The notes below the pieces were generated by a model. That model was not told where the DNA came from. It was given only the letters and a program-made list of their open reading frames with translations, and did not search any database. This document shows positions 3,011 to 64,000 of a DNA stretch of 64,000 bases, one piece after another; the stretch's first letter is position 1, and every line of letters begins with the position of its first letter. Location: positions 92,911-156,910 of the forward strand of contig CAZFYO010000003.1 in the NCBI GenBank assembly GCA_964523525.1, in the 5' to 3' direction. A program made the translations under genes and the position numbers. The stretch comes from an uncultured Elusimicrobia bacterium (lineage in GTDB: Bacteria > Elusimicrobiota > Elusimicrobia > 2-02-FULL-39-32).

Positions 3011-4438
3011 ATGGAACCTTCGACGATTGACGTAAAAATCAAATCCAACACCCTGCGCCCCGCGGGCGGATCCTCCTCAACAGACCTCAAAGTTCCACCC
3101 TATTCCATCGAAGCCGAAATGGCTGTCCTGGGCTGTATGCTCATCGAAAAGGACGCCCTTGAGCAGGCGCTCGAAATGCTGCATCCCGAAAGTTTTTACG
3201 ACGACCGGCATGGGAAGCTTTTCGCCGCCATCAAGGAGATGTCGAGCGGGAGCGCCGCGATTGATATCGTCACGCTGGTGGACCAACTCAAAAAGACCGG
3301 CACGCTGGAAGCCGTGGGAGGAGCCGATTATCTGACGGAAGTGATGAACGTGGTTCCCACCGCGGCCCATGTGGAAGCCTACGCGCGGATCGTACAGCAG
3401 AAAGAGATTTTGCGGGAGCTGATCAATACTTCCACGAACGTGGTCAGCAGCTGCTACAAGCAGGACGAAGAGCCTGGATTCCTGCTGGACAGCGCGGAGC
3501 AGGCCATCTACAAGATCGCCGACCGGCTGAACAGCAAAAAAGGGCTCCTGCCGCTTTCCGAAATGCTGGGCGAAACCATCGAGCAGCTGGAAACCCTGCA
3601 TCAGAAAAAAGCCGCCGTCACCGGCGTCCCGACGGGCTTCACCAAATTTGACACCATGACGTCCGGTTTCCAGCCGGGCAATCTCGTGATCCTGGCCGCG
3701 CGGCCCGGCATGGGTAAAACCGCGCTGGCGCTGGACATCGCCTTGCACGCCGGCGTGGTCAAGAAAATTCCCACCATCATCTACTCGCTCGAAATGAGCC
3801 AGCAGGAAATCGTGATGCGGCTGTTGTCCGCGCTCTCCATGGTCCCGCTGGGCAAACTGCGCACCGGGTTTTTCCGCAAGGAAGACTGGCCGGTGCTGAC
3901 GCGCAAGGCGGAAGTTCTGTCCGAGTCCCCGATTTACCTGGACCATTCCTCGTCGGGCGTTTCCATTATGACCCTGCGGGCCACGGCGCGGCGGCTCGCG
4001 TCGCAGTTGCGCGCCAAGGGCACGCCGCTCGGCCTCATCGTCATCGACTATTTGCAGCTCATGCAGGGTTCGCGCCGCACGCCGGAAAGCCGCCAGACGG
4101 AAATCGCGGAAATTTCTCGTTCGCTCAAAGGCCTGGCGCTCGATCTTAAAGTGCCCATCATCGCGCTTTCGCAGCTGAACCGCAGCCCCGAAGAGCACGG
4201 CCGCGACGGCAAGCCCCAGCTTTCCCACCTCCGCGAATCGGGCGCCATCGAACAGGACGCTGACCTCGTGGGCTTTATCTACCGCGAAGGCATGTACAAG
4301 AAGGACCCCGATCCCGAGACGCAGCGCAAGGCCAAGCTTATCATCGCCAAGCAGCGTAACGGCCCTCTGGGCGAAGTCGATCTCGTCTTCATCGGCGAAT
4401 GCGCGCGCTTCCAGAACCTCGAGCCCGACGCCGAGTAA
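3011..4438 (+). CDS. dnaB: Replicative DNA helicase DnaB
   Basis: DnaB N-terminal domain (PPYSIEAEMAVLGCML), Walker A (ARPGMGKT), DnaB-family motifs (IVIDYLQLM, SQLNR); 475 aa. Confidence 0.9.
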   Translation: MEPSTIDVKIKSNTLRPAGGSSSTDLKVPPYSIEAEMAVLGCMLIEKDALEQALEMLHPESFYDDRHGKLFAAIKEMSSGSAAIDIVTLVDQLKKTGTLEAVGGADYLTEVMNVVPTAAHVEAYARIVQQKEILRELINTSTNVVSSCYKQDEEPGFLLDSAEQAIYKIADRLNSKKGLLPLSEMLGETIEQLETLHQKKAAVTGVPTGFTKFDTMTSGFQPGNLVILAARPGMGKTALALDIALHAGVVKKIPTIIYSLEMSQQEIVMRLLSALSMVPLGKLRTGFFRKEDWPVLTRKAEVLSESPIYLDHSSSGVSIMTLRATARRLASQLRAKGTPLGLIVIDYLQLMQGSRRTPESRQTEIAEISRSLKGLALDLKVPIIALSQLNRSPEEHGRDGKPQLSHLRESGAIEQDADLVGFIYREGMYKKDPDPETQRKAKLIIAKQRNGPLGEVDLVFIGECARFQNLEPDAE

Positions 4439-51184: not shown

Positions 51185-51231
51185 AAAAGAGAAAGGCCTG
51201 ATCGCTAACGCGATTACGGCCTTTCTCTTTT
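51185..51231. terminator. Bidirectional intrinsic-terminator-like hairpin between the NmrA-like gene and aceK
   Basis: 14-bp stem (AAAAGAGAAAGGCC / GGCCTTTCTCTTTT) with inner ATCGC/GCGAT stem; U-rich 3' flank on both strands; the aceK stop codon lies in the loop. Confidence 0.5.
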
Positions 51232-52974
51232 GAGGCGGGACGGTTCCTTGTAGGGGAGTATTTCCGCGATTTCGCCGGCTGCGAGGCGCTTCTGGAGGTC
51301 CTGCCAGTAGCGCACCGTGAAGAGGTCGCCGTGGAGCGGGTCGAAGACCTTGCGCATCCTCGGGTCGAGTCCGATGAACGTCCTGAACTCCTGGGGAAAG
51401 ATGTCGGCATCGCCCACGTAGAACCAGGGTTCGCTTTCCAGCTCCTCGCTTTCGTCCCGCGCCGCCGGGACCTCGCGGATATTGCAGTCCGTCAGCAGGC
51501 ATAGCTCATCGTAGTCGTAAAAGACCACCCGTTCGTTGCGGGTCACGCCGAAATTCTTCAGCAAAATGTCGCCCGGAAAGATGTTGGCCTTGGCCATGTC
51601 CTTGATGGCGCTCCCAAAATCCACCGCCGCATCCCGCGCCAGCTCTTCCGGCGCTTCCTTCAAGTAAATGTTGAGCGGCACGACGCGGCGCTCCGTATAG
51701 AGATGGCGGATGATCACGGTGTCGCCGGAAATCGAGACGGATTTGGCGGCCTGTTGAGTGAGCTCCTGCAGAAGCTCTTCAGTGAAGCGGCTCTTATCGA
51801 ACTCCAAATGTTCAAATTCTTGCGCATCCACAAGGCGCCCGGCGCGGTCGTGCTGGAACACGAGGTGGTACTTGGCCAATACCTGCTGGCGCGACGTGCG
51901 TTTTGTGTAACTGAATTTGTCTTTAATGATTTTGAAAACTACGTCATAAGATGGCAGCTCGAACACGGTCATCACCATGCCCTTTTCGCCCGGGGAGATG
52001 CGGAATTTATCTTTTGATTCCTGAAGGTGGCGGTAGAGGTCGCGGTAGAGCTCGGTTTTTCCGTGCTTGTTGAATCCGATGGAAATGTAGAGCTCGGCTT
52101 TGGGCTTTTGCGGCATTATAGACTGCAGGAAATCGACCAGCTCCCGGGGCTTTTTGACCTTCACGTGAAAATAGGAGCGCGTGAAGCTGAATACGATGCT
52201 GACTTCGGAATCATTGAGCAAAACCGCGTCCACCAGGATCTGGCCCGCAGGGTTGCGGAGCGCCAACACCAGCGGCAGTTCGCCTTTGGCGGCGCGGATT
52301 TTACCGACGATAAATGCGCCGTTGCCGCGATAAAAGACGGGCTTGATCACGTCGATCTGTTCGAACTTTGCCGAGCCGAAACGGGATTGGAGCTGCTGTT
52401 CAATGCGCCGCGCGCACAGTTCCGCGTCTCCGCCGATATCTTCGAATGGCGCGTTGAATTCGTAGCGTTTCAGAAGCTCTATCAAAAGGTTCGGCAGGGG
52501 CCCGTTGCTGGGATAGGAACGGTAAATGGGTTTTTCGCTCTGGATCGGCGGCGTATCGAGCTCGGAGTCGAGATACTCCGCGCCGGGCTCGGTGCCAATC
52601 ACCACCATGACCTTGCGCAGGGTGGAGTTGTAAAACGTTTTGGCCAGTTCGATATCCTGCCGCGCCGCTACGAGAGCGGTAAAATTCATTTTAGCCTGCG
52701 ACCAGAGGCGGCTGTCGTTGTGTCCGCTGCCGACCAGCTCCTTGACCTTGGGGATCAGCTGGTTGATGATCTTGGTATAGAGGTCGAGGCGCTCGATGGC
52801 GTCGCGCTGCGCGCCGGTCCAGTCGCACTTCTCGAAACGGGTGCGGGCCCGGGAGGTGATCTCCGTAAATTTTTCCTGATAGATGTTGAACGCTTCGAGG
52901 ATGAGCGCGGCGCAGCCGGCGGCGGCGGCCGCGCGGGCGGCGGGGTCGGAGGAGGAGGACGGTTCGCGGCTCAT
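51214..52974 (-). CDS. aceK: Isocitrate dehydrogenase kinase/phosphatase
   Basis: AceK-family similarity over 586 aa (…NIYQEKF…, kinase-like C-terminal region); divergent from aceB. Coordinates are taken from the ORF track; my own base indexing disagreed by 1 nt near 52.92 kb. Confidence 0.85.
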   Translation of the reverse strand: MSREPSSSSDPAARAAAAAGCAALILEAFNIYQEKFTEITSRARTRFEKCDWTGAQRDAIERLDLYTKIINQLIPKVKELVGSGHNDSRLWSQAKMNFTALVAARQDIELAKTFYNSTLRKVMVVIGTEPGAEYLDSELDTPPIQSEKPIYRSYPSNGPLPNLLIELLKRYEFNAPFEDIGGDAELCARRIEQQLQSRFGSAKFEQIDVIKPVFYRGNGAFIVGKIRAAKGELPLVLALRNPAGQILVDAVLLNDSEVSIVFSFTRSYFHVKVKKPRELVDFLQSIMPQKPKAELYISIGFNKHGKTELYRDLYRHLQESKDKFRISPGEKGMVMTVFELPSYDVVFKIIKDKFSYTKRTSRQQVLAKYHLVFQHDRAGRLVDAQEFEHLEFDKSRFTEELLQELTQQAAKSVSISGDTVIIRHLYTERRVVPLNIYLKEAPEELARDAAVDFGSAIKDMAKANIFPGDILLKNFGVTRNERVVFYDYDELCLLTDCNIREVPAARDESEELESEPWFYVGDADIFPQEFRTFIGLDPRMRKVFDPLHGDLFTVRYWQDLQKRLAAGEIAEILPYKEPSRLKRERP

Positions 52975-53062
52975 GCTATTTCTTATCAGGAATGGCCCGT
53001 TTAATCAAGAGGCAGAAACGAGCCGAAAAAGGCGTGGCAAGTGCGTTGCGTCTCGATGTCCG

Positions 53063-53102
53063 GCGGAAAAAAATAAACTGAAATTTCCGCTTGAAATTTT
53101 CC
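53063..53102. promoter_or_regulatory. Candidate operator in the aceK-aceB divergent intergenic region
   Basis: Inverted repeat GCGGAAA-N14-TTTCCGC (53063-53090) plus direct repeat TGAAATTTCC / TGAAATTTTCC (53079-53102), overlapping a -35-like TTGAAA about 35 nt upstream of the aceB ATG. Confidence 0.3.
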
Positions 53103-53130
53103 TTAACTTCATTAGAGTTAGAGAGCCATT

Positions 53131-54732
53131 ATGCCAAACGACCCCTATTCCGCCCTCGGAGTCCGGTTCACGGAACCGGTCGCGCCGGACCAGCAAAGCA
53201 TCCTTTCGGAGGCCGCGGTCTCCTTTTTAGCCAAACTCGTCCGCGAATTCGGGCCAAGGCGCGCGGAGCTGCTGCGTAAACGCACCGAACGGCAGATGCG
53301 GATTGACGACGGCCTGAGGCCTTCATTTCTGCTGGAAACCCACGGCGTGAGGGAAGGAAACTGGACCTGCGCTCCCATCCCGAAGGATTTGATGGACCGC
53401 CGGGTTGAGATCACCGGTCCCACCGACCGCAAGATGATCATCAACGCGCTCAATTGCGGCGCCAACGTCTTCATGGCGGACTTTGAGGACTCGAACGCTC
53501 CCACCTGGAAGAACATGATCCAGGGCCAGATCAACCTGCGCGACGCGGTCCGCGGCAAAATCGATTTTACCAGCCCCGAGGGCAAGGAATATAAGCTTAA
53601 ACCCAAAACCGCGACCCTGATGGTCCGGCCGCGCGGCTGGCACCTCGAAGAAAAGCACGTGCTTGTCGACGGAAAACCGGTCTCGGCTTCACTTTTTGAT
53701 TTTGCGGTCTTCTTCTTCCACAACGCGCAGGCGCTCATCGATAAAGGCACCGGCCCTTACTTTTATCTGCCCAAAATGGAGAGCCATCTGGAAGCGCGGC
53801 TCTGGAACGACGTATTTTTGCGCGCTCAGGACGAGTTGAAGATTCCGCGCGGCACGATCCGCGCGACCGTGTTGATCGAAACGATCCTGGCGGCCTTCGA
53901 GATGGACGAAATCCTCTATGAGCTGCGCGACCATTCCGCCGGGCTCAACTGCGGGCGATGGGACTACATCTTCAGCTTCATCAAGAAGTTCTGCGCCTAT
54001 CCCGATAATATATTCCCCGACCGCGCCCAGGTCGGCATGACCACCCATTTCCTCCGTTCCTATTCCAAACTGCTCATTCAGACCTGCCACCGGCGCGGCA
54101 TCCACGCGATGGGCGGCATGGCGGCGCAGATTCCCATTAAAAACAATCCCGCGGCCAACGACGCGGCCATGGCCAAGGTGCGGGCCGACAAGGAACGCGA
54201 AGTCACCGACGGCCATGACGGCACCTGGGTGGCGCATCCCGACCTCGTGGGCATCGCCAAAGAGATTTTTGACAAACATATGAAGGGCCCGCATCAAATT
54301 GATAAAAAAATCACCGATCTGAAGGTGACGGCCGAGGATTTATTGATGGTTCCCAAGGGCGATATCACCGAAGCAGGGCTGCGCACCAACATCGACGTGG
54401 GTGTGGCGTATCTCGAAGCCTGGCTGCGCGGACAGGGCTGCGTTCCCATCTACAATTTGATGGAAGACGCCGCGACCTCCGAGATTTCTCGGGCGCAGGT
54501 CTGGCAGTGGATCCATCACCGGGCCAAAATGACCGACGGGCGGATGGTGACCGCCGAGCTGTACCGTTCGCTGCTGAAGGAAGTCATTGAAGCGGTGCGC
54601 TCGCATCTGGGCCAGGAAAAATTTGAGCAGAGCAAATTCGCCTTGGCCAGCCTTCTTTTCGAAAAGATGGTGACGGCCGAACACTTCCCGCAGTTTCTGA
54701 CGCTGGAAGCCTATGGCAAACTCGAGGGATAA
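53131..54732 (+). CDS. aceB: Malate synthase A
   Basis: Malate synthase A family similarity across 533 aa (…[22 protein letters not shown]…[40 protein letters not shown]…). Confidence 0.9.
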
Positions 54733-54736
54733 CTCC

Positions 54737-56035
54737 ATGAACGAATCACAGCGGATCGCGCAGGACTGGAAAAGAAATCCCCGTTGGAAAGGAATCGTTC
54801 GCAATTATTCGCCTGCCGATGTACTGCGTTTGCGCGGGTCCATGAAGATTGAGCATACGCTCGCGCGGCGCGGAGCGGAAAAATTTTGGAAGCTGCTGCA
54901 TTCGGAGCCCTACATTCACGCTTTGGGCGCCATGACGGGCAACCAGGCCGTCGAGATGGTGCAGGCGGGGCTGAAAGCGATCTATTTGAGCGGCTGGCAG
55001 GTTGCCGCCGACGCCAACAATACGGGGCAGATGTATCCCGACCAGAGTTTATATGCCGTGAGCTCGGTGCCCGAGAAGGTGCAGGCGATCAACCGCGCGT
55101 TGCAGCGCGCCGATCAGGTTTGGCACCTCGAGCGGAAGTCCAAGATCGACTGGTTTGCGCCCATTGTGGCCGATGCCGAGGCTGGGTTTGGCGGGGCGTT
55201 GAATGCCTACGAGCTCATGAAGGCGATGATCGAAGCGGGCGCCGCCGCGGTTCACTTTGAAGACCAGCTCGCCAGCGAAAAAAAGTGCGGACACATGGGC
55301 GGCAAAGTCCTCGTGCCCGCGCAGGAGTTTATTCGCAAACTCGAGGCGGCGCGCCTCGCTTCCGACGTGCTCGGGGTCCCGACTTTGATCGTGGCGCGCA
55401 CGGATGCCGATGGAGCCAAGCTTTTAACCAGCGATATCGACGAGCGCGACCAGGAATTCATGACCGGCGAACGGACCGCGGAAGGGTTTTACCGCATCAA
55501 GGCCGGCGTGGACTGCGCCATCGCGCGCGGCGTCGCCTACGCGCCCTACGCGGACCTGGTCTGGTGCGAAACCTCCAAGCCCGATCTGCATGACGCCAAA
55601 AAATTCGCGGAAGGCGTGCTCAAAAAGTATCCCCGCAAGCTGCTGGCCTACAACTGTTCGCCTTCCTTCAACTGGAAATTGAACCTGAGCCCGTCGCAAA
55701 TCGCAAAATTCCAACAGGAAATCGGCCGGATGGGTTATAAATTCCAGTTTGTGACGCTCGCGGGCTTCCACGTGCTGAACGCGGGCATGTTTGAGCTGGC
55801 CTCCGGCTACAAAAAGGCCGGCATGGCCGCCTACTCCAAATTCCAGGAAAAAGAATTCGAGATGGAAAAGAAACAGGGATTTGCCGCCGTCAAACATCAG
55901 AGTTTCGTCGGCGCGGGCTATTTCGATGAGATTCAAAACGTACTGACCGGCGGCCAATCGTCCACAAAGGCGCTCAAAGACTCCACCGAGGAAGACCAGT
56001 TCAAGCCGGGTCAGAAGAAAGGCCGGCGCAAGTAA
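54737..56035 (+). CDS. aceA: Isocitrate lyase
   Basis: Isocitrate lyase active-site region (KKCGHMGGK) and family similarity; start at ATG 54737, 5 nt after the aceB stop. Confidence 0.9.
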
Positions 56036-57169
56036 GTGACGTCAAAAATTTCTTCCTTTAACCCTCCTATCCGCACCCTCCTGGGGCCCGGACCCTCCAA
56101 CCTGCACCCGCGCGTTCTGGCCGCGATGGCCAAACCCACGATTGGGCACCTCGATCCCGAGTTTATCCGCATGATGGACGAGCTGCAGCTGCTTCTGCGC
56201 GACGCTTTTCAGACCCGGAATGAAATGACGATGGTCGTCTCCGGCCCCGGGTCGGCCGGAATGGAAACCTGCTTCGTGAATTTGATCGAACCCGGCGAGA
56301 AAGTGATCGTCTGCCAGAACGGCGTCTTCGGAGGCCGGATGAAGGAGAACGTCGAACGCGCGGGCGGAACCTGCGTTTTGATCGAAGACCCCTGGGGCCG
56401 CGCGGTGGACCCGCAAAAGCTCGAGGACGCGCTCAAGAAAAACCCCGACGCGAAACTGGTCGCTTTCGTCCACGCGGAAACGTCCACGGGCGCGCTGAGC
56501 GACGCGAAGACCCTGGCGCAGATCGCGCACAGCGCGAATTGCCTCGTGATCGCCGATACCGTGACATCTTTGGGCGGCGTTCCGCTTCTGGTGGACGAGT
56601 GGGAGCTGGACGCGGTCTATTCCGGCAGCCAGAAGTGCCTGTCCTGCGCTCCGGGACTGTCGCCCATCACGTTCAGCGAGCGGGCCATGAAGAAAGTGAA
56701 GGGACGCTCCGGCAAGGCGCGCAGCTGGTTCCTGGACCTGAACCTCGTCACGGCCTATTGGAACGCCGGGACAGGGGCCGGCGGCAAGCGGGTCTATCAC
56801 CATACCGCTCCGGTCAACGCTCTTTACGGGCTGCACGAGGCGCTGGTTCTCCTGCAGGAAGAGGGGATCCAAAATTCCTGGGCTCGCCATCAAAAAAATC
56901 ATGAAATTTTGAAAAAAGAGCTGGCCGCGCTGGGCATGACGTTCTTCGTGCCCGAGAAAGAGCGGCTGCCGCAATTGAACGCGGTCGTGATTCCCGAGGG
57001 AAAAGACGACGCGCAGATCCGTTCCCGCCTCCTGAACGAGTTCGGCATCGAAATCGGCGCGGGGCTGGGCGTGCTCGCCGGAAAAATCTGGCGTATCGGC
57101 CTGATGGGCTACTCCTCCAACCCCGAAAACGTCAGGCACCTTAAAGAAGCGCTGAAGAAACTGATTTGA
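56036..57169 (+). CDS. Class V aminotransferase (alanine/serine--glyoxylate aminotransferase-like)
   Basis: PLP fold-type I class V features (…FVHAETSTGAL…VDEWELDAVYSGSQKCLSCAPGLS…); GTG start abutting the aceA stop. Confidence 0.8.
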   Translation: MTSKISSFNPPIRTLLGPGPSNLHPRVLAAMAKPTIGHLDPEFIRMMDELQLLLRDAFQTRNEMTMVVSGPGSAGMETCFVNLIEPGEKVIVCQNGVFGGRMKENVERAGGTCVLIEDPWGRAVDPQKLEDALKKNPDAKLVAFVHAETSTGALSDAKTLAQIAHSANCLVIADTVTSLGGVPLLVDEWELDAVYSGSQKCLSCAPGLSPITFSERAMKKVKGRSGKARSWFLDLNLVTAYWNAGTGAGGKRVYHHTAPVNALYGLHEALVLLQEEGIQNSWARHQKNHEILKKELAALGMTFFVPEKERLPQLNAVVIPEGKDDAQIRSRLLNEFGIEIGAGLGVLAGKIWRIGLMGYSSNPENVRHLKEALKKLI

Positions 57170-57197
57170 TGGCACGCAAAATGAAGGTGAAATCTTG

Positions 57198-58292
57198 ATG
57201 GCGCGCGAAATCCGGCCCGCTCTGAGAACGGGCGTCAGCGTCAAAGCCCAGCTGATCGCCCGGCTGCGCTTCAGCCACGTCCTCACGCTTTCCGAGAAGG
57301 AATTTGCCCGGATGATCAGCGACATCGAGAATGATCCGCTTTTCCAGAAATTTCTATACCCCAAAGATTCCGGACCCAAGGCCATTTTCAAGCGGCGCGT
57401 CCCGCACCAGCGCCTGTCCCCCGCCTTCTACGAAGCGAAGGACGAGATCAGCGCCGGCGCGGAAGGCGTGGACGTTGAGAATATCCTGGAGCAGCACCGG
57501 GGAGTGATCGATTTGATCCGCAAAATCGGCCAGGAGTCCTTTGAAAAGCATTTCCTCTACAAGGAGGGGACCGAATCCGCCGCTTCCATCGCCGAGAAGT
57601 GCGGGGTTTTCCCGGAGGACGTGATGAGGGTTCAGGCGGCGGTCACCCAGCTTTCCGTGCATTCGGAGTTTTTCAATCCGACCACACTGCCGGCCGAAAC
57701 GGGCCTGCGCTACACCCTGATCGCCCGGATCGACCCCGATGAACAGGGCTCGTTCTGGATCTCGTTCACGTCGCCGCACCTGGCGGCGGGGCGTTACGTC
57801 ATCAATCCGGAGCGCGTGGACGCGCTCAAAAAAGATTTGGCCGCCTCCGAAAGAAAAGCGGTCACGAACCTGATTCAGAAGCTGGAGCTCATCAACCTGC
57901 GGCAGGACACCCTGCACAAGATGCTGCAGGAAGTCCTGGTCCGGCAGAAAGGCTATCTGAGCTCCAACGACGCGTCGCGCCGCCTGCCGCTTTCCCAGCG
58001 CGACATGGCCGCCCACCTCGGCGTTGCCGCCTCCACGGTTTGCCGGGCGCTCTACGGAAAAAGCGTGCTCGCTCCCTGGGGCCGGGAAATGCCGCTCAAG
58101 GATTTCTTCGTCAACAAGAAAAACGCCGCCGAGGAGTGGGTCCGGCAGATCCTCGAGGAAATGCCCGAGGAAAAAAGGGACCAGTTGAGCGACAATGATT
58201 TGCGCGGCCTCCTCGCCCAGCGTTTTCGGTGCAAGGCGTCCCGCAGGTCCGTCAATCTCTATCGCCGCGCGGTTGAACAAAAATCAAAGTAG
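57198..58292 (+). CDS. rpoN: Compact sigma-54-like factor (RpoN family), about 365 aa
   Basis: Region-I-like N-terminus (VLTLSEKEFARMISDIENDPLFQK), sigma-54 HTH (LPLSQRDMAAHLGVAASTVCRAL…LKDFF) and RpoN-box-like C-terminus (SRRSVNLYRRA). Shorter than typical RpoN. Confidence 0.65.
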   Translation: MAREIRPALRTGVSVKAQLIARLRFSHVLTLSEKEFARMISDIENDPLFQKFLYPKDSGPKAIFKRRVPHQRLSPAFYEAKDEISAGAEGVDVENILEQHRGVIDLIRKIGQESFEKHFLYKEGTESAASIAEKCGVFPEDVMRVQAAVTQLSVHSEFFNPTTLPAETGLRYTLIARIDPDEQGSFWISFTSPHLAAGRYVINPERVDALKKDLAASERKAVTNLIQKLELINLRQDTLHKMLQEVLVRQKGYLSSNDASRRLPLSQRDMAAHLGVAASTVCRALYGKSVLAPWGREMPLKDFFVNKKNAAEEWVRQILEEMPEEKRDQLSDNDLRGLLAQRFRCKASRRSVNLYRRAVEQKSK

Positions 58293-58466
58293 TTTCTCCG
58301 ACGGAAAAGTGCCTCCCGCGGCCCCAAATTGTTACACATTATTTACATTAACTTCAGGTCTAATTTAACTCCCGACTGATATACTTTTGGCTCTGACGCA
58401 GAGCTTAAATAAGGAAAGGAGAACCTCCTGAAAGAGGCCAGCCTCGGGAAAAACCGTCCAACCGCC

Positions 58467-61400
58467 GTGAATCGGGGCCGCAAAGCGGTCGCCTGCGCTC
58501 TCGTGCTGTCCCTTTTACAGTCCGTGCTGCTCGCCCCGGCGGTTCAGGCGGGGTTGTGGCAGGACCGCCGCGAAGCGGCGAAGTCGCTTCCCTTGCTGGC
58601 GCAGCTGCCGGCGGACCTGGCCCCTATGGGTCCGTCGAACTGGCAGATGGACGCGCCAGCCAGCCCGCTCGCTTCGAGCCTGCAGAATTTCGCCGCTCCT
58701 TCCTGGCTCCGAAACCTTCCCCTCCAATACGCCAGTCTGAGGCGTTTGTCATTCCCGCCCGGCTGGAACCCTTCCGACCCCATCGTCATCCATATCCAGG
58801 ACGTGCACCAGAACGCCGAGGCGCAGGAGAACATCAGCCTGACGCTGCGTGAGCTGATCCGCGGGGGCCGGTTGAACCTGGTCGCGCTCGAAGGCTCGTT
58901 TGAAACGATGGATTTCAGCCGGTTCCGCTCCTACGAGGACGCGGATTCGGTGCGAAAGGTAACGGACTATCTGCTGCGCGAGGGGAAAATTTCCGGCGCG
59001 GTGCATGCCGCGTTCGCCAGCGAGAAGGCCCCGCCCAAATTTGCCGGCGTCGATGACCGCGAGCACTATTTCGCGCATGTCGATGCATACAAGAATTCGC
59101 GGGGCGCGGCGCAGGAAGTGAAAAAGGCTCTGGCGTCCCAAATGCAGGCGCTGGAAACGGAGAAAGCCGCGAAACTGAACCCCGATCTCAAAGCATTTGA
59201 CGCCGCCGTGCGCGATTTCCGCGCTGAAAAAACGAAGCTGGGCGCTTACGTCCAGTTTTTGACGGCCCGAAGCAAGAAGACCCTTCCCGAGGTCCAGAAA
59301 TTCCTGAAAGCCTTCAAAGCCGAATCGAGCCTCGATTTCGCGCGGGCGGAAAAAGAGCGCGGCGAGATCATCAACAAGCTCGTGAAGAACCTCGGCCGCG
59401 ATCAGGTCAACGGACTTTTGAATGCCAGCCTCTCTTATCGCGTGGGCCGAACGCGCCACGGCGATTTCTACGTCTATCTCCGCGATCTTTGCGCCAAGAA
59501 CGGCGTCGAGTTTGCAAAGTACGCCGCGATGGACGCCTATCTCCAATATGTTTTGTTGTCGGACAGCATCAACGCCGAGAAGCTGCTGCATGAAGTGGAT
59601 TCAATGGAAGCGGCGGGCTATCAGGCGCTCGCCAAAACCCCGCAGGAAACCATCCTGATTAAAAAATCCAAATGGCTTCATCTGGCGGACAAGCTGGTGG
59701 ATTACTCGCTGTCTCCCAAAGAGTGGAAGGAATATCACTCGATGCGGGACTTGGGAGATTCCATGCTGCGCGATCTGGAGCCTTTCGAGGGATTCTTTAA
59801 AGAGGCCCTGATTCGCGATGAGGCGATGGCCGCCAACTTCATCCGCTCCATCGGGACGGATAGGAATGCGGCGGCGGTGCTGGTGACCGGCGGATTCCAT
59901 TCCGAGGGCATTGAAGAGCGTCTGAAACGCAAAGGGATCGCGGTGTTGACGCTGGCACCCAAAATCAGCAAGGTCGAGACGAAAGACGGCGCGGCGTACC
60001 TCAACGTTTTCACGCAGGAAAAAACCCCGCTCGAAAAACTCTTCCAGGGAGAAAAGCTTTTCGTCACTCCGGAAGTGTTTTCACATTCCACGGAATTGTC
60101 TGCTGCGGCCTTTATCGCCCTCTTCAAACGGACAGTTGAGTCAGCCAACGACGCATTCCACCGGCTGAGCGGTTCAAAAGGCGCCGCCTACAATATCATT
60201 TCGGTTGAGCTCACTGAGGGCATCGTCGGTACATTGGAAGGGCCGCAGGGCTCGGAGCGCTTCAAAATCCAGGCCAACGATGAATCCATCGAAAGCGTTC
60301 AATTCATTCCGTTTTCAGGCATGCGCGGCGTCATGGGTCTTTTCCTGGGGAAGGCCAAAGCCATGGGCCTGTACGGCGAAAAATTATGGACGTTTGTCAG
60401 CCGGATCAATTCCGCGCCGATGTCGGTCAAAATGGTGATGGCCGCCGCGGTCGCCCTGCCGCTGTCGTTCCTGTTCAATGAAATGGCGCCCGGACTGGTG
60501 ATGATGGCCACGGTCGGAAGCTCGATGGGGCCCGGCGAGACCGGAAACGAAGCGCGCGCCAAAGTGCTCTGGCACATCGGCTTCGCGCCCGTGCCGAACG
60601 CGCCGGAACGGACCCTTTTTCTGCGAAGCGAAGCGGAGGCCGCCCGCCTCATGCCGGTTCCCCCGGCGGACACGTGGGTCGAAGTCCGTTACCTGGGAGA
60701 GCGGTCCGAATTCCTGCGCATGTCCATGTACCGGCGCGATCCGGGTGAGACCGAGGACCAGTTTTGGGGACGGCACATGCGCGATTCCGAGGAACGGAAA
60801 CTTTTCGACCTGTACCTCACCATCGATCCGTCGTTTTCCGACACGGTCTGGCTGAGTCCGGGCAAGGCGTATCCGGCGCTCCGCGAATTGTTCGGCCCCG
60901 GCGGCTATTCCAGCGAGGCCTGGATACGCGACACGCTCCTGCCCTGGCTGACCGAGCGCGGGTTCGTGGAAGTAAAAGTCGGCCTGCAGGAATCCAGCGA
61001 TAAGCTTTTCAAATCCCTGGGGTTCACGAAATTCGGCGGAGGGACGATGCGAAAAGTCCTGAACGCCAAGTTAAGGCGGCGTTCGGCGCGTTCTCTGACT
61101 CGGGCACCCGCGCCCTGGACGCTCGAAGAGCGGAGGAAGGACGCCATCCTGCGGATATTGAACGGTAGGACGGAGTCGGCCAACATTGTCCAGCTGTACG
61201 CGGAATTCGCGAAGGACCCGGCCTTTGAAGACGCGACCCAATCCGAGTTCGCCGACCTGGTGATGCGGACGCCCGCGATCCTTGACCACCCGATGCTGAG
61301 CCGGTCCCGGAGCGGGGCGTGGCACGTAGGTGATATGGCTCAAATCGTGGCCAAACAGCTGGTGTCCTCAAGCGACCGGCTTGTTTCCAGGTTTACGGCC

Positions 61401-64000
61401 GATTTAGCAGAACCCCTGAGGCAGGTTATTCTCTCGGCCCTTGCGAAATCAAGAGAAGCCGGGAGTGGAGGATATCAGACTTTTATCGATAACTTAACTT
61501 TTGAGGATCGTCCGATAAGCGAAGAAGAATATATGGATATGCTCTATACGTGGTCTGAAAAGTCCACTGTTGAATTTAACAGCGATCTTCAAAAAAGAGT
61601 TGAGGACAGCATTGTCAGGCAATACCAGCGCAATGGGTCAAAAGTAGAGTCGAGGAGAGGGGCTCAGGCGCGAGTATCCGGCAAGGGAAATTATTCGATG
61701 ACGGTTCTGATCAGCCAGCAGGGTTATCCCGCTCTGACATTCAACATTCTCTTGTCCAACAGAAGGAGGTTTTTCGCGGATCCGGACAACCATATTCTCG
61801 CCCAGCATCGTCCTATATCGTTCGGCGCTTATAATTACTTGCTGCTCCTCCAATCAAGGGTTTTTGATCTGGATGACGCGATACTTGATCTTGTTATCAA
61901 GCATGAGATTGAAGAGATGATGGTAAAACACCGGTCCAGGAACCGGATCGGCGCGGCGGAGGCTCACCGCCTTGCGCTTCAATCCTCGGGGGATGAGCGC
62001 TCTGTTGGAAAAGTGCAGGCCGCGCTTCGCGCACAGAATCAAAAAGACGTTTCCGTCCGCAGGGTGCAAAAATTCCTGGGATCCGCGATCGACGAATCCT
62101 TCATCCGGGAAAATGTGGATGCGCTGGAATTGGTGTGCCTGGACGCTGACGACTATCTGGAACTCCTGCCTTCGGATTATTTGGAGGTTAAGAAATATGC
62201 AGCTAACGTCAGTCCGATTCATTTGATGCTGGATTTGATATTTCTAAATTGGAAAGACCCCGCGGAGCCTGCCGAGTTCATCGCGAATTTGCCCCGCATT
62301 CAGCGGCTTTTGGGGAAGGATTGGTTTACGCACAATTGGACCAATCTGGTAACGCAGTACAGCCAGATGGGCGCGGAGCAATTCAATGGAATTTTTGAGC
62401 GTCAGAGGAACGATCCTTGGATCAGGAATAAAAGCCGGGACTGGCTGAGAGAGTATTTTCTGGACATTCCCAATATCCGCCCCATGAAGGAGGAAAAGGA
62501 CATTGAAGCCGTTTTTGAAGGCGGCCTGGAAAACAGCGGATCCGAATTTGACGACTTAAGATCCGCGATCCGGTCCTATCCCGATATATTGACCGAATCC
62601 ATCAAGGCAATTTACAGGGTTCAAGCGGTCGATTTCAGGACGGATGACATCGTTAAGGTAGGGGTCAAAAAAATCGGCGACGGCACCAGCAACGCGGTTT
62701 TCCTGCTGACTGAAATCGTTTTGTCCAATGGCAGGGTGGTTTCCCAATATCCGATCGTCATGAAGGTCAGCAAGGAATCGACCTATGATCTGACCCATCA
62801 GGGAATGCAGCAGATCGTTCAGGCCGCGCGGGAGCTTGCCGCTCAGGATCCTCCGCTGTATCCCAGGATCGGGGGGCAGTGGATTTTTGACTATCTGCAT
62901 GAGTTTTGGATTGTGAGCGAAGAGTTTGTCCCGGGTCCCACGCTTTGGAACGAGATAGCAGGAGTCCGGATGGATCCCGATCTCGGCGATGCCGAAAAGG
63001 AAAGAAGGATCATCGATCTCCTTGCCAGGCAGTTCGACGTGTATCTTCGAGCCTGGAAAACGTGGAACGAACGTTCCGGGGCCCCGCATTGGATCGAAAG
63101 CAAATTTATCGGCGATCCCAATTCTCTTAATATCATCGGAAGAATGATTGTTGACCTGAACTCGCTGCAGGAGTCCATGACACCGGCCGAAATCGTCGAA
63201 CAGATGATACCGGAGGATGTTCTGGCGGATTCGTCTCCACTGTATTCAATATTTGTCCGGCTGGCCCAGGATATCATGGGCGGAGACAGCGGCCGCCAGT
63301 TTCTGTACAGCTCGCACAATCTCAAAATTTTGAGCGCGCTGGAAGAGTATGAGGAATCCGAGGCCGAAAATGACGGCGGCATTGAGCCCGTTAACTCTCT
63401 CGCCTACTGGATCGCCGATCTGGCGCGCTTGAGCCCGTCCAAAGCGAGAGCGGTCGGCCTCGCGGGGCTGGCCGTGGAAATCCCGGCGCTGATCGCGGCC
63501 GGACTGGTGTTGCCGTTCTTCGGCATGGCAGCCTTCCTGGGAGTCTTCGCGGGCGCCCACATCCTCCTGGAAAAAATTTCTGCCGGCCGCCAGAACCGCG
63601 GCCCCCCGACTTTACGCCAGACGGCCGCCCAAATCATCGCGTTCCTTCCGTATCTGCTGATTTCCATCGCAGGAATTTTTTCCGACTCCATTTTAAGTCA
63701 GTATTTCCTTCCCGCTCTCACCGCGGTCTTCGTCCACGCGAAATTTGACCTGCCACTGATCACCCGGCGTTTCCCCAAAGCCGTTTTCAGCCCTGCCGCG
63801 GCCGCCGGGCCTGCGATGCGCCTGTCGGGACAGGGATTGACGGCCGCGCAGCACGTCGTGGTCAACGAAGCGGTCGCAGGATTTTTCAACCGTCCGGTGA
63901 CGGCAAGTGAGCGGCGCATGCTGATCCCAAGAACCCAGGACTACCGCGCTCTGGATCCCACCGGCGCGCTGGCGGCGGAAGGCGTCCGCATCTATGCCCT
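58467..64000 (+). CDS. Giant secreted/membrane multidomain protein, 5' portion (frame open to the window end; more than 1,840 codons in window)
   Basis: Frame 0 has stops at 58377-58379 and 58410-58412 and then none to position 64000 (checked by hand at several coordinates). Not in the track, presumably because no stop lies in the window. Strong SD AAGGAAAGGAGA at 58411-58422; candidate starts CTG 58428 or GTG 58467; signal-peptide-like N-terminus (NRGRKAVACALVLSLLQSVLLAPAVQA). Confidence 0.75.
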   Translation, partial: MNRGRKAVACALVLSLLQSVLLAPAVQAGLWQDRREAAKSLPLLAQLPADLAPMGPSNWQMDAPASPLASSLQNFAAPSWLRNLPLQYASLRRLSFPPGWNPSDPIVIHIQDVHQNAEAQENISLTLRELIRGGRLNLVALEGSFETMDFSRFRSYEDADSVRKVTDYLLREGKISGAVHAAFASEKAPPKFAGVDDREHYFAHVDAYKNSRGAAQEVKKALASQMQALETEKAAKLNPDLKAFDAAVRDFRAEKTKLGAYVQFLTARSKKTLPEVQKFLKAFKAESSLDFARAEKERGEIINKLVKNLGRDQVNGLLNASLSYRVGRTRHGDFYVYLRDLCAKNGVEFAKYAAMDAYLQYVLLSDSINAEKLLHEVDSMEAAGYQALAKTPQETILIKKSKWLHLADKLVDYSLSPKEWKEYHSMRDLGDSMLRDLEPFEGFFKEALIRDEAMAANFIRSIGTDRNAAAVLVTGGFHSEGIEERLKRKGIAVLTLAPKISKVETKDGAAYLNVFTQEKTPLEKLFQGEKLFVTPEVFSHSTELSAAAFIALFKRTVESANDAFHRLSGSKGAAYNIISVELTEGIVGTLEGPQGSERFKIQANDESIESVQFIPFSGMRGVMGLFLGKAKAMGLYGEKLWTFVSRINSAPMSVKMVMAAAVALPLSFLFNEMAPGLVMMATVGSSMGPGETGNEARAKVLWHIGFAPVPNAPERTLFLRSEAEAARLMPVPPADTWVEVRYLGERSEFLRMSMYRRDPGETEDQFWGRHMRDSEERKLFDLYLTIDPSFSDTVWLSPGKAYPALRELFGPGGYSSEAWIRDTLLPWLTERGFVEVKVGLQESSDKLFKSLGFTKFGGGTMRKVLNAKLRRRSARSLTRAPAPWTLEERRKDAILRILNGRTESANIVQLYAEFAKDPAFEDATQSEFADLVMRTPAILDHPMLSRSRSGAWHVGDMAQIVAKQLVSSSDRLVSRFTADLAEPLRQVILSALAKSREAGSGGYQTFIDNLTFEDRPISEEEYMDMLYTWSEKSTVEFNSDLQKRVEDSIVRQYQRNGSKVESRRGAQARVSGKGNYSMTVLISQQGYPALTFNILLSNRRRFFADPDNHILAQHRPISFGAYNYLLLLQSRVFDLDDAILDLVIKHEIEEMMVKHRSRNRIGAAEAHRLALQSSGDERSVGKVQAALRAQNQKDVSVRRVQKFLGSAIDESFIRENVDALELVCLDADDYLELLPSDYLEVKKYAANVSPIHLMLDLIFLNWKDPAEPAEFIANLPRIQRLLGKDWFTHNWTNLVTQYSQMGAEQFNGIFERQRNDPWIRNKSRDWLREYFLDIPNIRPMKEEKDIEAVFEGGLENSGSEFDDLRSAIRSYPDILTESIKAIYRVQAVDFRTDDIVKVGVKKIGDGTSNAVFLLTEIVLSNGRVVSQYPIVMKVSKESTYDLTHQGMQQIVQAARELAAQDPPLYPRIGGQWIFDYLHEFWIVSEEFVPGPTLWNEIAGVRMDPDLGDAEKERRIIDLLARQFDVYLRAWKTWNERSGAPHWIESKFIGDPNSLNIIGRMIVDLNSLQESMTPAEIVEQMIPEDVLADSSPLYSIFVRLAQDIMGGDSGRQFLYSSHNLKILSALEEYEESEAENDGGIEPVNSLAYWIADLARLSPSKARAVGLAGLAVEIPALIAAGLVLPFFGMAAFLGVFAGAHILLEKISAGRQNRGPPTLRQTAAQIIAFLPYLLISIAGIFSDSILSQYFLPALTAVFVHAKFDLPLITRRFPKAVFSPAAAAGPAMRLSGQGLTAAQHVVVNEAVAGFFNRPVTASERRMLIPRTQDYRALDPTGALAAEGVRIYA

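Follow-up and report, generated by a model that had tools for sequence, protein, structure and literature searches.

Giant proteins that combine many enzymatic domains and are threaded through the membrane are a recent and poorly understood discovery in the Omnitrophota and their relatives. In the reports on the 'Archaeovorin'-type and 'multi-enzyme metabolic' giants (10.1101/2023.11.21.568195, 10.64898/2026.06.07.730766), membrane helices were counted, no conserved transmembrane (TM) domain was defined and the TM regions were left out of structure prediction. The topology of the Omnitrophota giants has been called ambiguous, and their cleavage has been left open. A second point of reference is the CPBP/Rce1 (Abi) family of intramembrane glutamic proteases, which are defined by an EExxxR motif and two histidines on two other helices (PMC6588880); Rce1 itself uses a Glu, two His and an Asn (PMC5874806). 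Here, a 64,000-nucleotide stretch of DNA from an uncultured Elusimicrobia bacterium (GCA_964523525.1, contig CAZFYO010000003.1, positions 92,911 to 156,910; hereafter the window) is examined, at the 3' end of which lies the gene of a giant protein carrying a conserved four-helix membrane module. That membrane helices are scattered through giant multi-enzyme proteins was already known. What is new is a discrete, conserved TM domain with a signature of polar residues, absent from Pfam, NCBIfam and the PDB as well as from the two reports named above. With moderate confidence, this module is read as a staple of four membrane helices that probably holds a metal-binding or hydrolytic centre.

The open reading frame (ORF) of the giant protein and the parts of the module are listed below. 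ORF residues are counted from the GTG at 58467; residues of the module carry the numbering of its structural model, in which residue n is ORF residue 1633+n.

58467..64000, plus strand: giant ORF; start GTG 58467, 1844 codons within the window, no stop up to the window end
63387..63770, plus strand (residues 1641-1768): conserved membrane module; hidden Markov model (HMM) match of 145 bits, family search, AlphaFold2 (AF2) pLDDT 90.1
63399..63422, plus strand: short amphipathic helix with the semi-conserved pattern P-N-S-x-x-Y (here NSLAYWIA); N in 25/39 copies, S in 25/39, Y/F in 31/39
63435..63509, plus strand: TM1, predicted to run from inside to outside, with the stripe G..GL..E(I)(P).L; Glu38 (GAA, 63477-63479) in 35/39 copies, Gly31 in 36/39, L42 in 34/39
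63516..63590, plus strand: TM2, predicted from outside to inside, L..F...H..L; His65 (CAC, 63558-63560) in 36/39 copies, Glu in the other three
63591..63611, plus strand: loop 2-3, predicted cytoplasmic, K/R-rich, with an R-x-P-P motif (RGPP); 2.95 Lys plus Arg (K+R) per copy
63612..63680, plus strand: TM3, predicted from inside to outside, F.PY.LL; invariant Tyr96 (TAT, 63651-63653), 39/39 copies
63690..63764, plus strand: TM4, predicted from outside to inside, A...H...D; His124 (CAC, 63735-63737) and Asp128 (GAC, 63747-63749), both in 39/39 copies

An initial annotation of the window had pointed to a cluster of hydrophobic helices about 1,650 residues into the protein. The cluster is real: the peptides AVGLAGLAVEIPALIAAGLVLPFFGMAAFLGVFAGAHILL at 63450-63569 and QIIAFLPYLLISIAGIFSDSILSQYFLPALTAVFVHA at 63630-63740 lie in the frame of the giant ORF, and the cluster begins at about residue 1657. 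Kyte-Doolittle means over 19 residues exceed 1.6 at only four places in the 1844 residues (8-26, 652-674, 1660-1693 and 1720-1738); within the cluster they rise to 1.63-2.25, and the hydrophobic run beyond 1720-1738 extends to residue 1757. The two hydrophobic stretches originally described are in fact four helices of 23-25 residues plus the short amphipathic helix, and the interval first assigned to them, 63430-63720, ends within the last helix, which reaches about 63764. Nor is the cluster a chance effect, as it belongs to a 128-residue unit that is conserved across giant proteins.

The unit recurs within a narrow group of proteins. In BLAST, residues 1643-1768 match one relative (P0004) twice, the sole exception to a set of relatives that otherwise share just the first ~550 residues, and phmmer together with a first profile added the module in P0011, P0001, P0002, P0015 (two copies) and P0028. 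Word-indexed homology searches, whether with the nine-copy alignment of the module (A1) or with the CPBP segment of a relative, P0027, came back empty, though known members score >90 bits by the same profile. Word pre-selection apparently fails on membrane sequence, and an empty result of this kind cannot count as a sign that a hydrophobic domain is absent. In their place stands an HMMER search with A1 as the profile, run exhaustively over 1.84 billion (1.84e9) representative proteins, which found 31 with the module at E<=1e-3. Most of the 31 are 1.4-7.6 thousand amino acids (kaa) long, five are shorter than 1.1 kaa, and several are matched in two to three stretches. After the profile was rebuilt, the module was present in 42 of 89 sequences (88 fetched proteins and the window ORF), at one to five copies each. 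The copy closest to that of the window is in P0054 (38% identity), and the carriers that have a name are hypothetical proteins of Elusimicrobia metagenome-assembled genomes (MAGs) and of 'bacterium F11'. None of the copies is matched by a Pfam or NCBIfam model or by a PDB sequence. The module is thus a domain not annotated before, confined almost entirely to giant multi-domain proteins from bacteria of the Elusimicrobiota type. In the largest arrangement described here, that of P0082 (7681 residues), three modules stand about 570 residues apart within residues 3943-5231 and two more follow further along, which points to tandem duplication of a soluble domain together with its module.

The AF2 model of the module, built from an alignment of 39 copies (A2), has a mean pLDDT of 90.1 and a pTM of 0.83; it replaces an earlier model from nine sequences with a pLDDT of 68. 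The short helix spans model residues 12-19 and the four long helices span 24-48, 51-75, 83-105 and 109-133. Mean column identity among the copies is only about 21%, and what is retained is arranged regularly: across the 39 copies the conserved positions of every helix fall at i, i+3/4 and i+7, so that a single conserved stripe runs along each helix, the pattern expected of faces packed together in the core of a bundle. Three of the conserved polar residues, Tyr96, His124 and Asp128, are invariant. TM2 and TM4 run parallel, with His65 placed 14 and His124 placed 15 residues in from their outer ends; the depth of Tyr96 and of Gly31/34 is similar. Where His65 is replaced by Glu, in three copies, TM2 has a polar inner half (KWQERRYE and similar sequences), which suggests a site near the cytoplasmic surface. 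The P-N-S upstream of TM1 was considered as an autoproteolytic site and dropped as a main claim, N and S each being found in only 25/39 copies.

Membrane embedding, as the initial annotation had proposed, is borne out by composition. With the five conserved polar positions left out, the four helices of the 39 copies are 2.4-5.5% charged and 69-82% hydrophobic or small, against 26.9% charged and 44.6% hydrophobic or small in the soluble residues 701-1630 of the same protein. A bundle of helices buried in a soluble domain, outside the membrane, would need a polar outer face; here all faces of the four helices are hydrophobic, and they are therefore membrane helices. The loops point the same way, the outer ones having only 4-7 residues and the distribution of positive charge between the two sides being 30-fold asymmetric, so that a soluble helical domain is scarcely credible and the module is very probably a genuine conserved TM domain.

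The charge of the loops also bears on orientation. The mean K+R content per copy is 1.79 before TM1, 0.18 in loop 1-2, 2.95 in loop 2-3, 0.05 in loop 3-4 and 2.26 after TM4, which sums to 7.0 over the three segments assigned to the inside and 0.23 over the two outside loops (~30-fold); these outside loops have mean lengths of 7 (loop 1-2) and 4 residues (loop 3-4). By the positive-inside rule this bias therefore gives a module with both its N- and C-terminus inside, an orientation that is likely, the inside being presumably the cytoplasm. The suggestion in the initial annotation that upstream and downstream domains lie on opposite sides of the membrane is not supported: the even number of helices and the K+R bias indicate that both flanks lie on the cytoplasmic side. 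Neighbouring domains in other carriers lend this assignment independent support. In P0054 a SecA DEAD/P-loop motor (residues 747-1262) precedes the module (residues 1550-1679) with no hydrophobic segment in between, and in P0063 a MutS domain V ATPase (residues 2321-2504) lies between modules at residues 1659-1806 and 3024-3176, again with nothing hydrophobic intervening. The SecA motor and MutS-type ATPases work in the cytoplasm, and these ATPase neighbours fit cytoplasmic flanks.

Set beside the Omnitrophota giants (10.1101/2023.11.21.568195, 10.64898/2026.06.07.730766), the window protein is alike in being a long polyprotein with a signal-like N-terminus, in having membrane helices scattered between large soluble regions, and in being predicted to lie for the most part on the cytoplasmic side. 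Hydrophobic clusters at residues 8-26, 651-674 and 1660-1757 interrupt the soluble regions of its >1844 residues, and its relatives show the same pattern. These relatives carry SecA_DEAD, HATPase_c, phosphoglucomutase, transaldolase and malate synthase/isocitrate lyase (ICL) domains, a further likeness. The differences are that the named relatives come mostly from Elusimicrobiota-type MAGs, that the family spans 1-8 kaa compared with >10 kaa, and that the helices here form a discrete, recurrent and sequence-conserved cassette.

From these features a working scheme can be drawn. The module would insert as two helical hairpins with both ends in the cytoplasm and would thereby hold the cytoplasmic stretches before and after it in the polyprotein against the cytoplasmic membrane, on its inner face. 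Within the bundle, the Glu of TM1, the His of TM2, the Tyr of TM3 and the His-x-x-x-Asp of TM4 may converge as a buried centre in the inner to central half of the bilayer. Such a centre would be reachable from the cytoplasmic side and could be a metal-ion site or a water-activating site, in which Glu38 and Asp128 could back His65 and His124. The module might then be a small intramembrane hydrolase-like or metal-binding unit, resembling CPBP/Rce1 in chemistry and not in architecture. The domain, its rarity, helices, composition, charge bias and conserved residues are observed; that its flanks are cytoplasmic, that the polar residues converge, and that they catalyse a reaction or bind a metal, is what we infer. 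Whether the polar centre is functional in this sense, metal-binding or catalytic, and not purely structural appears evenly balanced, and the module is unlikely to be a protease specifically.

A purely structural role has several observations in its favour. The flanks differ completely from copy to copy, as they would for a portable cassette; the number of copies scales with the length of the protein, much as the TM helices of the Omnitrophota giants are reported to do (10.64898/2026.06.07.730766); and the bundle fold is generic. The module could accordingly be an anchor only, its polar residues forming an interhelical network of hydrogen bonds and salt bridges that stabilises or helps to insert a marginally hydrophobic bundle. 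Yet an invariant Tyr, His and Asp against a mean column identity of ~21% exceeds the conservation usual for an anchor, the Glu/His and His/Asp pairs plus a Tyr are typical of active-site or ligand sets, and the other membrane clusters of these same proteins do not have the polar signature of the module. An anchor and nothing else is thus considered a minority possibility, somewhat unlikely on balance.

The depth of the two histidines raises another explanation. FdnI/CybB-type four-helix cytochromes hold a b-type haem between two His, and cation-diffusion facilitators (CDF) hold Zn or Fe at HxxxD sites. By likeness to these families, which is taken as a lead only, two His that lie equally deep in parallel helices of a four-helix bundle in the membrane, one of them in an HxxxD, might bind a bis-His b-type haem or Zn/Fe and make the module a redox, sensing or ion-binding unit. 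The 14- and 15-residue distances of His65 and His124 from the outer ends of helices running in the same direction suit this proposal, as do the conserved Gly31 and Gly34 at about the same depth on TM1, the carboxylate paired with each His (Glu38, and Asp128 at i+4), the conserved Arg of the inner loop and a few weak Foldseek matches (ZnT1, ZnT7, Dcytb), though these have E values of 3.5-9. The change of His65 to Glu in three copies, unusual for a haem axial ligand and acceptable for a metal ion, would favour a metal ligand or a general base over a haem axial ligand. Moreover, neither in sequence (Pfam, NCBIfam, PDB) nor in fold does the module match cytochrome b or CDF families, and it has two His only, without a second HxxxD helix. 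A single haem in the inner leaflet would have no obvious partner for electron transfer across the membrane, and four helices are too few for a known ion transporter unless they oligomerise. A cofactor- or ion-binding unit of these kinds is therefore doubtful.

The most specific alternative is that the module is a true, very divergent CPBP/Rce1 protease, acting inside the membrane to cut the giant protein or a partner. Its residue set invites the comparison: a Glu would activate water and two His plus an Asp would complete the site. In a run of four membrane helices the first carries the Glu, the second FxxxH, the fourth HxxxD/N and the third none of them, the order found in CPBP/Rce1 (PF02517; 4CAD). 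The FxxxH is recognisable on the helix after the Glu (F61 in 25/39 copies, Leu in 7; His65), and the HxxxN/D appears two helices further as His124 and Asp128. The spacing from Glu to His is of the same order, about 27-33 residues (27 in the module against mostly 31-35 in reference CPBPs). Furthermore, cleavage of giant proteins is a question that has been raised for this class (10.1101/2023.11.21.568195), and one relative does contain a Pfam-level Rce1-like domain. In P0027, residues 669-769 form a canonical Rce1-like/CPBP domain (EELIFR, FAFH, HMSYN) directly after the shared N-terminal domain, within the first membrane cluster of that protein; at the equivalent place (residues 651-690) the window protein has a single hydrophobic segment.

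For a direct comparison, 13 annotated CPBP genes from plasmid records, found with a probe sequence that is not itself evidence, were aligned with P0027 to give 14 reference domains; tblastn of the P0027 segment against plasmids gave chance matches to ABC permeases only. When A2 was compared with this alignment in hhalign, the score was 18.5 (P 0.013, probability 3.3%) over 35 columns that cover TM3-TM4 only and place HxxxD on HxxxN. None of 150 block-shuffled controls reached this score (10.9 +/- 1.3, maximum 15.1), which makes for a small non-random signal on the last two helices, far short of proof. Against membership, none of the 39 copies matches PF02517 (Rce1-like) or its clan relatives, including PrsW, DUF2324 and APH-1, at E<=10, while P0027 as a positive control scores 22.9 against a cut-off of 22.4; NCBIfam and PDB sequences give no match either. 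EExxxR is missing: the G..GL..EIP.L of TM1 has no second Glu and no Arg, its single Glu standing in an xEIPxL context, whereas 14/14 reference CPBPs have [EN]E..[F/Y/M]R. From His to His the module counts 59 residues, compared with 31-36 in 11/14 reference CPBPs (range 31-54). Orientation differs as well. In the reference CPBPs the K+R count is 2.6 behind the Glu helix (motif 1) and 0.14 behind the His of motif 2, while in the module the loop joining the Glu helix to the His helix has 0.18 and the loop that follows the His helix has 2.95; the K/R-rich loops are reversed, and the helices of the module therefore span the membrane the other way round, the Glu helix running from inside to outside where that of CPBPs runs from outside to inside. 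Finally, the module has four helices in total and Rce1 and APH-1 share a six-helix core, with no fold similarity of the module to Rce1 (4CAD) or APH-1 (5A63). Straight CPBP membership, the first idea considered, was rejected on spacing, orientation, HMM and fold, and a very divergent CPBP is accordingly improbable. By analogy, the module may nevertheless work like a CPBP through the same catalytic-type set of residues.

Several observations weigh against the reading of the module as a membrane staple with a functional polar centre. The convergence of the five polar residues has been judged from helix depth and periodicity only, and sequence cannot demonstrate an activity, a metal or a cofactor. 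The AF2 fold is a plain up-down four-helix bundle for which structure searches return no specific neighbour, and it is uninformative on function. Summed Hessa free energies of the single helices are marginal, at 2-8 kcal/mol; such sums are common for helices with functional polar residues, but they leave the membrane assignment dependent on the family evidence. A HATPase_c domain in P0056 is separated from the module by one hydrophobic segment, a misfit to the simple picture in which all flanks lie inside. The window protein itself gives mixed signs on its overall topology: the N-terminus resembles a signal peptide, yet a K/R-rich stretch precedes the helix at 651-674.

At least some helices of giant proteins are therefore not generic anchors and belong to a portable four-helix cassette with a probable in/in topology and an invariant polar centre. 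The profile of the module provides a reproducible domain definition, its topology provides a rule for the side on which neighbouring domains lie, and its five conserved polar residues are targets by which anchoring could be told from catalysis or metal binding. Should the centre be structural only, what would be left is a new domain, its function unknown, within an already familiar kind of architecture. At the far end of the range stands the rather unlikely proposal that the module is a new, minimal class of intramembrane enzyme housed in giant polyproteins, its four-helix Glu/His/Tyr/His-Asp centre facing the cytoplasmic leaflet, cutting in cis or in trans at each staple or holding a catalytic metal, and arisen either independently of the CPBP/Rce1 proteases or as an offshoot of inverted topology. 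If true, it would be the first concrete candidate for cutting membrane-threaded giant proteins into working pieces.

The frame of the giant ORF is open from 58413 to 64000, with codons starting at positions divisible by 3, and the GTG at 58467 is the equivalent of the start set by a gene caller on an independent Logan contig (L001). The other features of the ORF are as follows.

58479..60242, plus strand (residues ~5-592): conserved N-terminal domain, apart from the module the only part shared with 53 giant proteins
58488..58544, plus strand (residues 8-26): N-terminal hydrophobic segment VACALVLSLLQSVLLAPAV; Kyte-Doolittle mean 2.24, preceded by RGRK and followed by VQA/G
60417..60536, plus strand (residues 651-690): second hydrophobic segment, after the N-terminal domain; Kyte-Doolittle mean 1.86
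63771..63998, plus strand: soluble region 3' of the module, not conserved in relatives, pLDDT <50, running past the window

From its flanking residues, VACALVLSLLQSVLLAPAV looks like a signal peptide or signal anchor. The second segment is probably one membrane helix, and relatives have one to four hydrophobic segments at the equivalent place. A search with the whole protein returned 53 relatives of 1.1-3.1 kaa, those with names belonging to the Elusimicrobiota, the Omnitrophica or 'bacterium F11'. Over the N-terminal ~550 residues, 52 of them are 21-46% identical, and the 53rd matches in short stretches only. The sole family signal of this domain is a sub-threshold match to the ChaN/Tiki model 'Cofac_haem_bdg' at residues 417-480 (17-22 bits, cut-off 27.7). 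Downstream of it the 53 relatives are unrelated, with phosphoglucomutase, transaldolase, AAA/Clp, DnaJ, GNAT, metallophosphoesterase and other domains. The 1844 residues seen of the window protein contain no Pfam domain above threshold, including no SecA DEAD-like or recognisable enzyme domain. Residues 691-1640 (60537-63386, ~950 residues) have no match in Pfam, NCBIfam or the PDB and no homologue among the fetched proteins. By eye, and unconfirmed, HEIEE...H is seen near residue 1145 and G-x-G...VMKV...EEFVPG near residues 1400-1500; such HExxE-like and kinase-like motifs (residues ~1140-1600) are without Pfam or PDB support, and no claim is made for them. As for the 3' end of the gene, the exact 40-mer at the end of the window is absent from the genome and metagenome contig collections searched, and protein-pattern scans with the last 385 residues found no relative in either of them.

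Directly upstream of the giant gene, at 51214-58292, lies a glyoxylate-shunt cluster, from aceK to the aminotransferase, and after it the gene of a sigma-54-domain protein:

51214-52974, minus strand: aceK
53131-54732: malate synthase
54713-56035: isocitrate lyase, overlapping the malate synthase ORF by 20 nucleotides
56036-57169: class-V aminotransferase
57198-58292: 364-residue protein that matches the sigma-54 DNA-binding domain only (residues 229-360)

Among the giant relatives, P0035 (3074 residues) has ICL and malate synthase Pfam domains inside the protein; enzymes encoded next to the giant gene here are thus part of the giant protein there. At 364 residues, the product of the sigma-54-domain gene is shorter than expected for a full-length RpoN. 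A search with this neighbouring gene led to two short Logan contigs only, both ending within the first 1056 residues of the giant ORF, and on both of them, as in the window, the sigma-54-domain gene stands immediately upstream of the giant gene.

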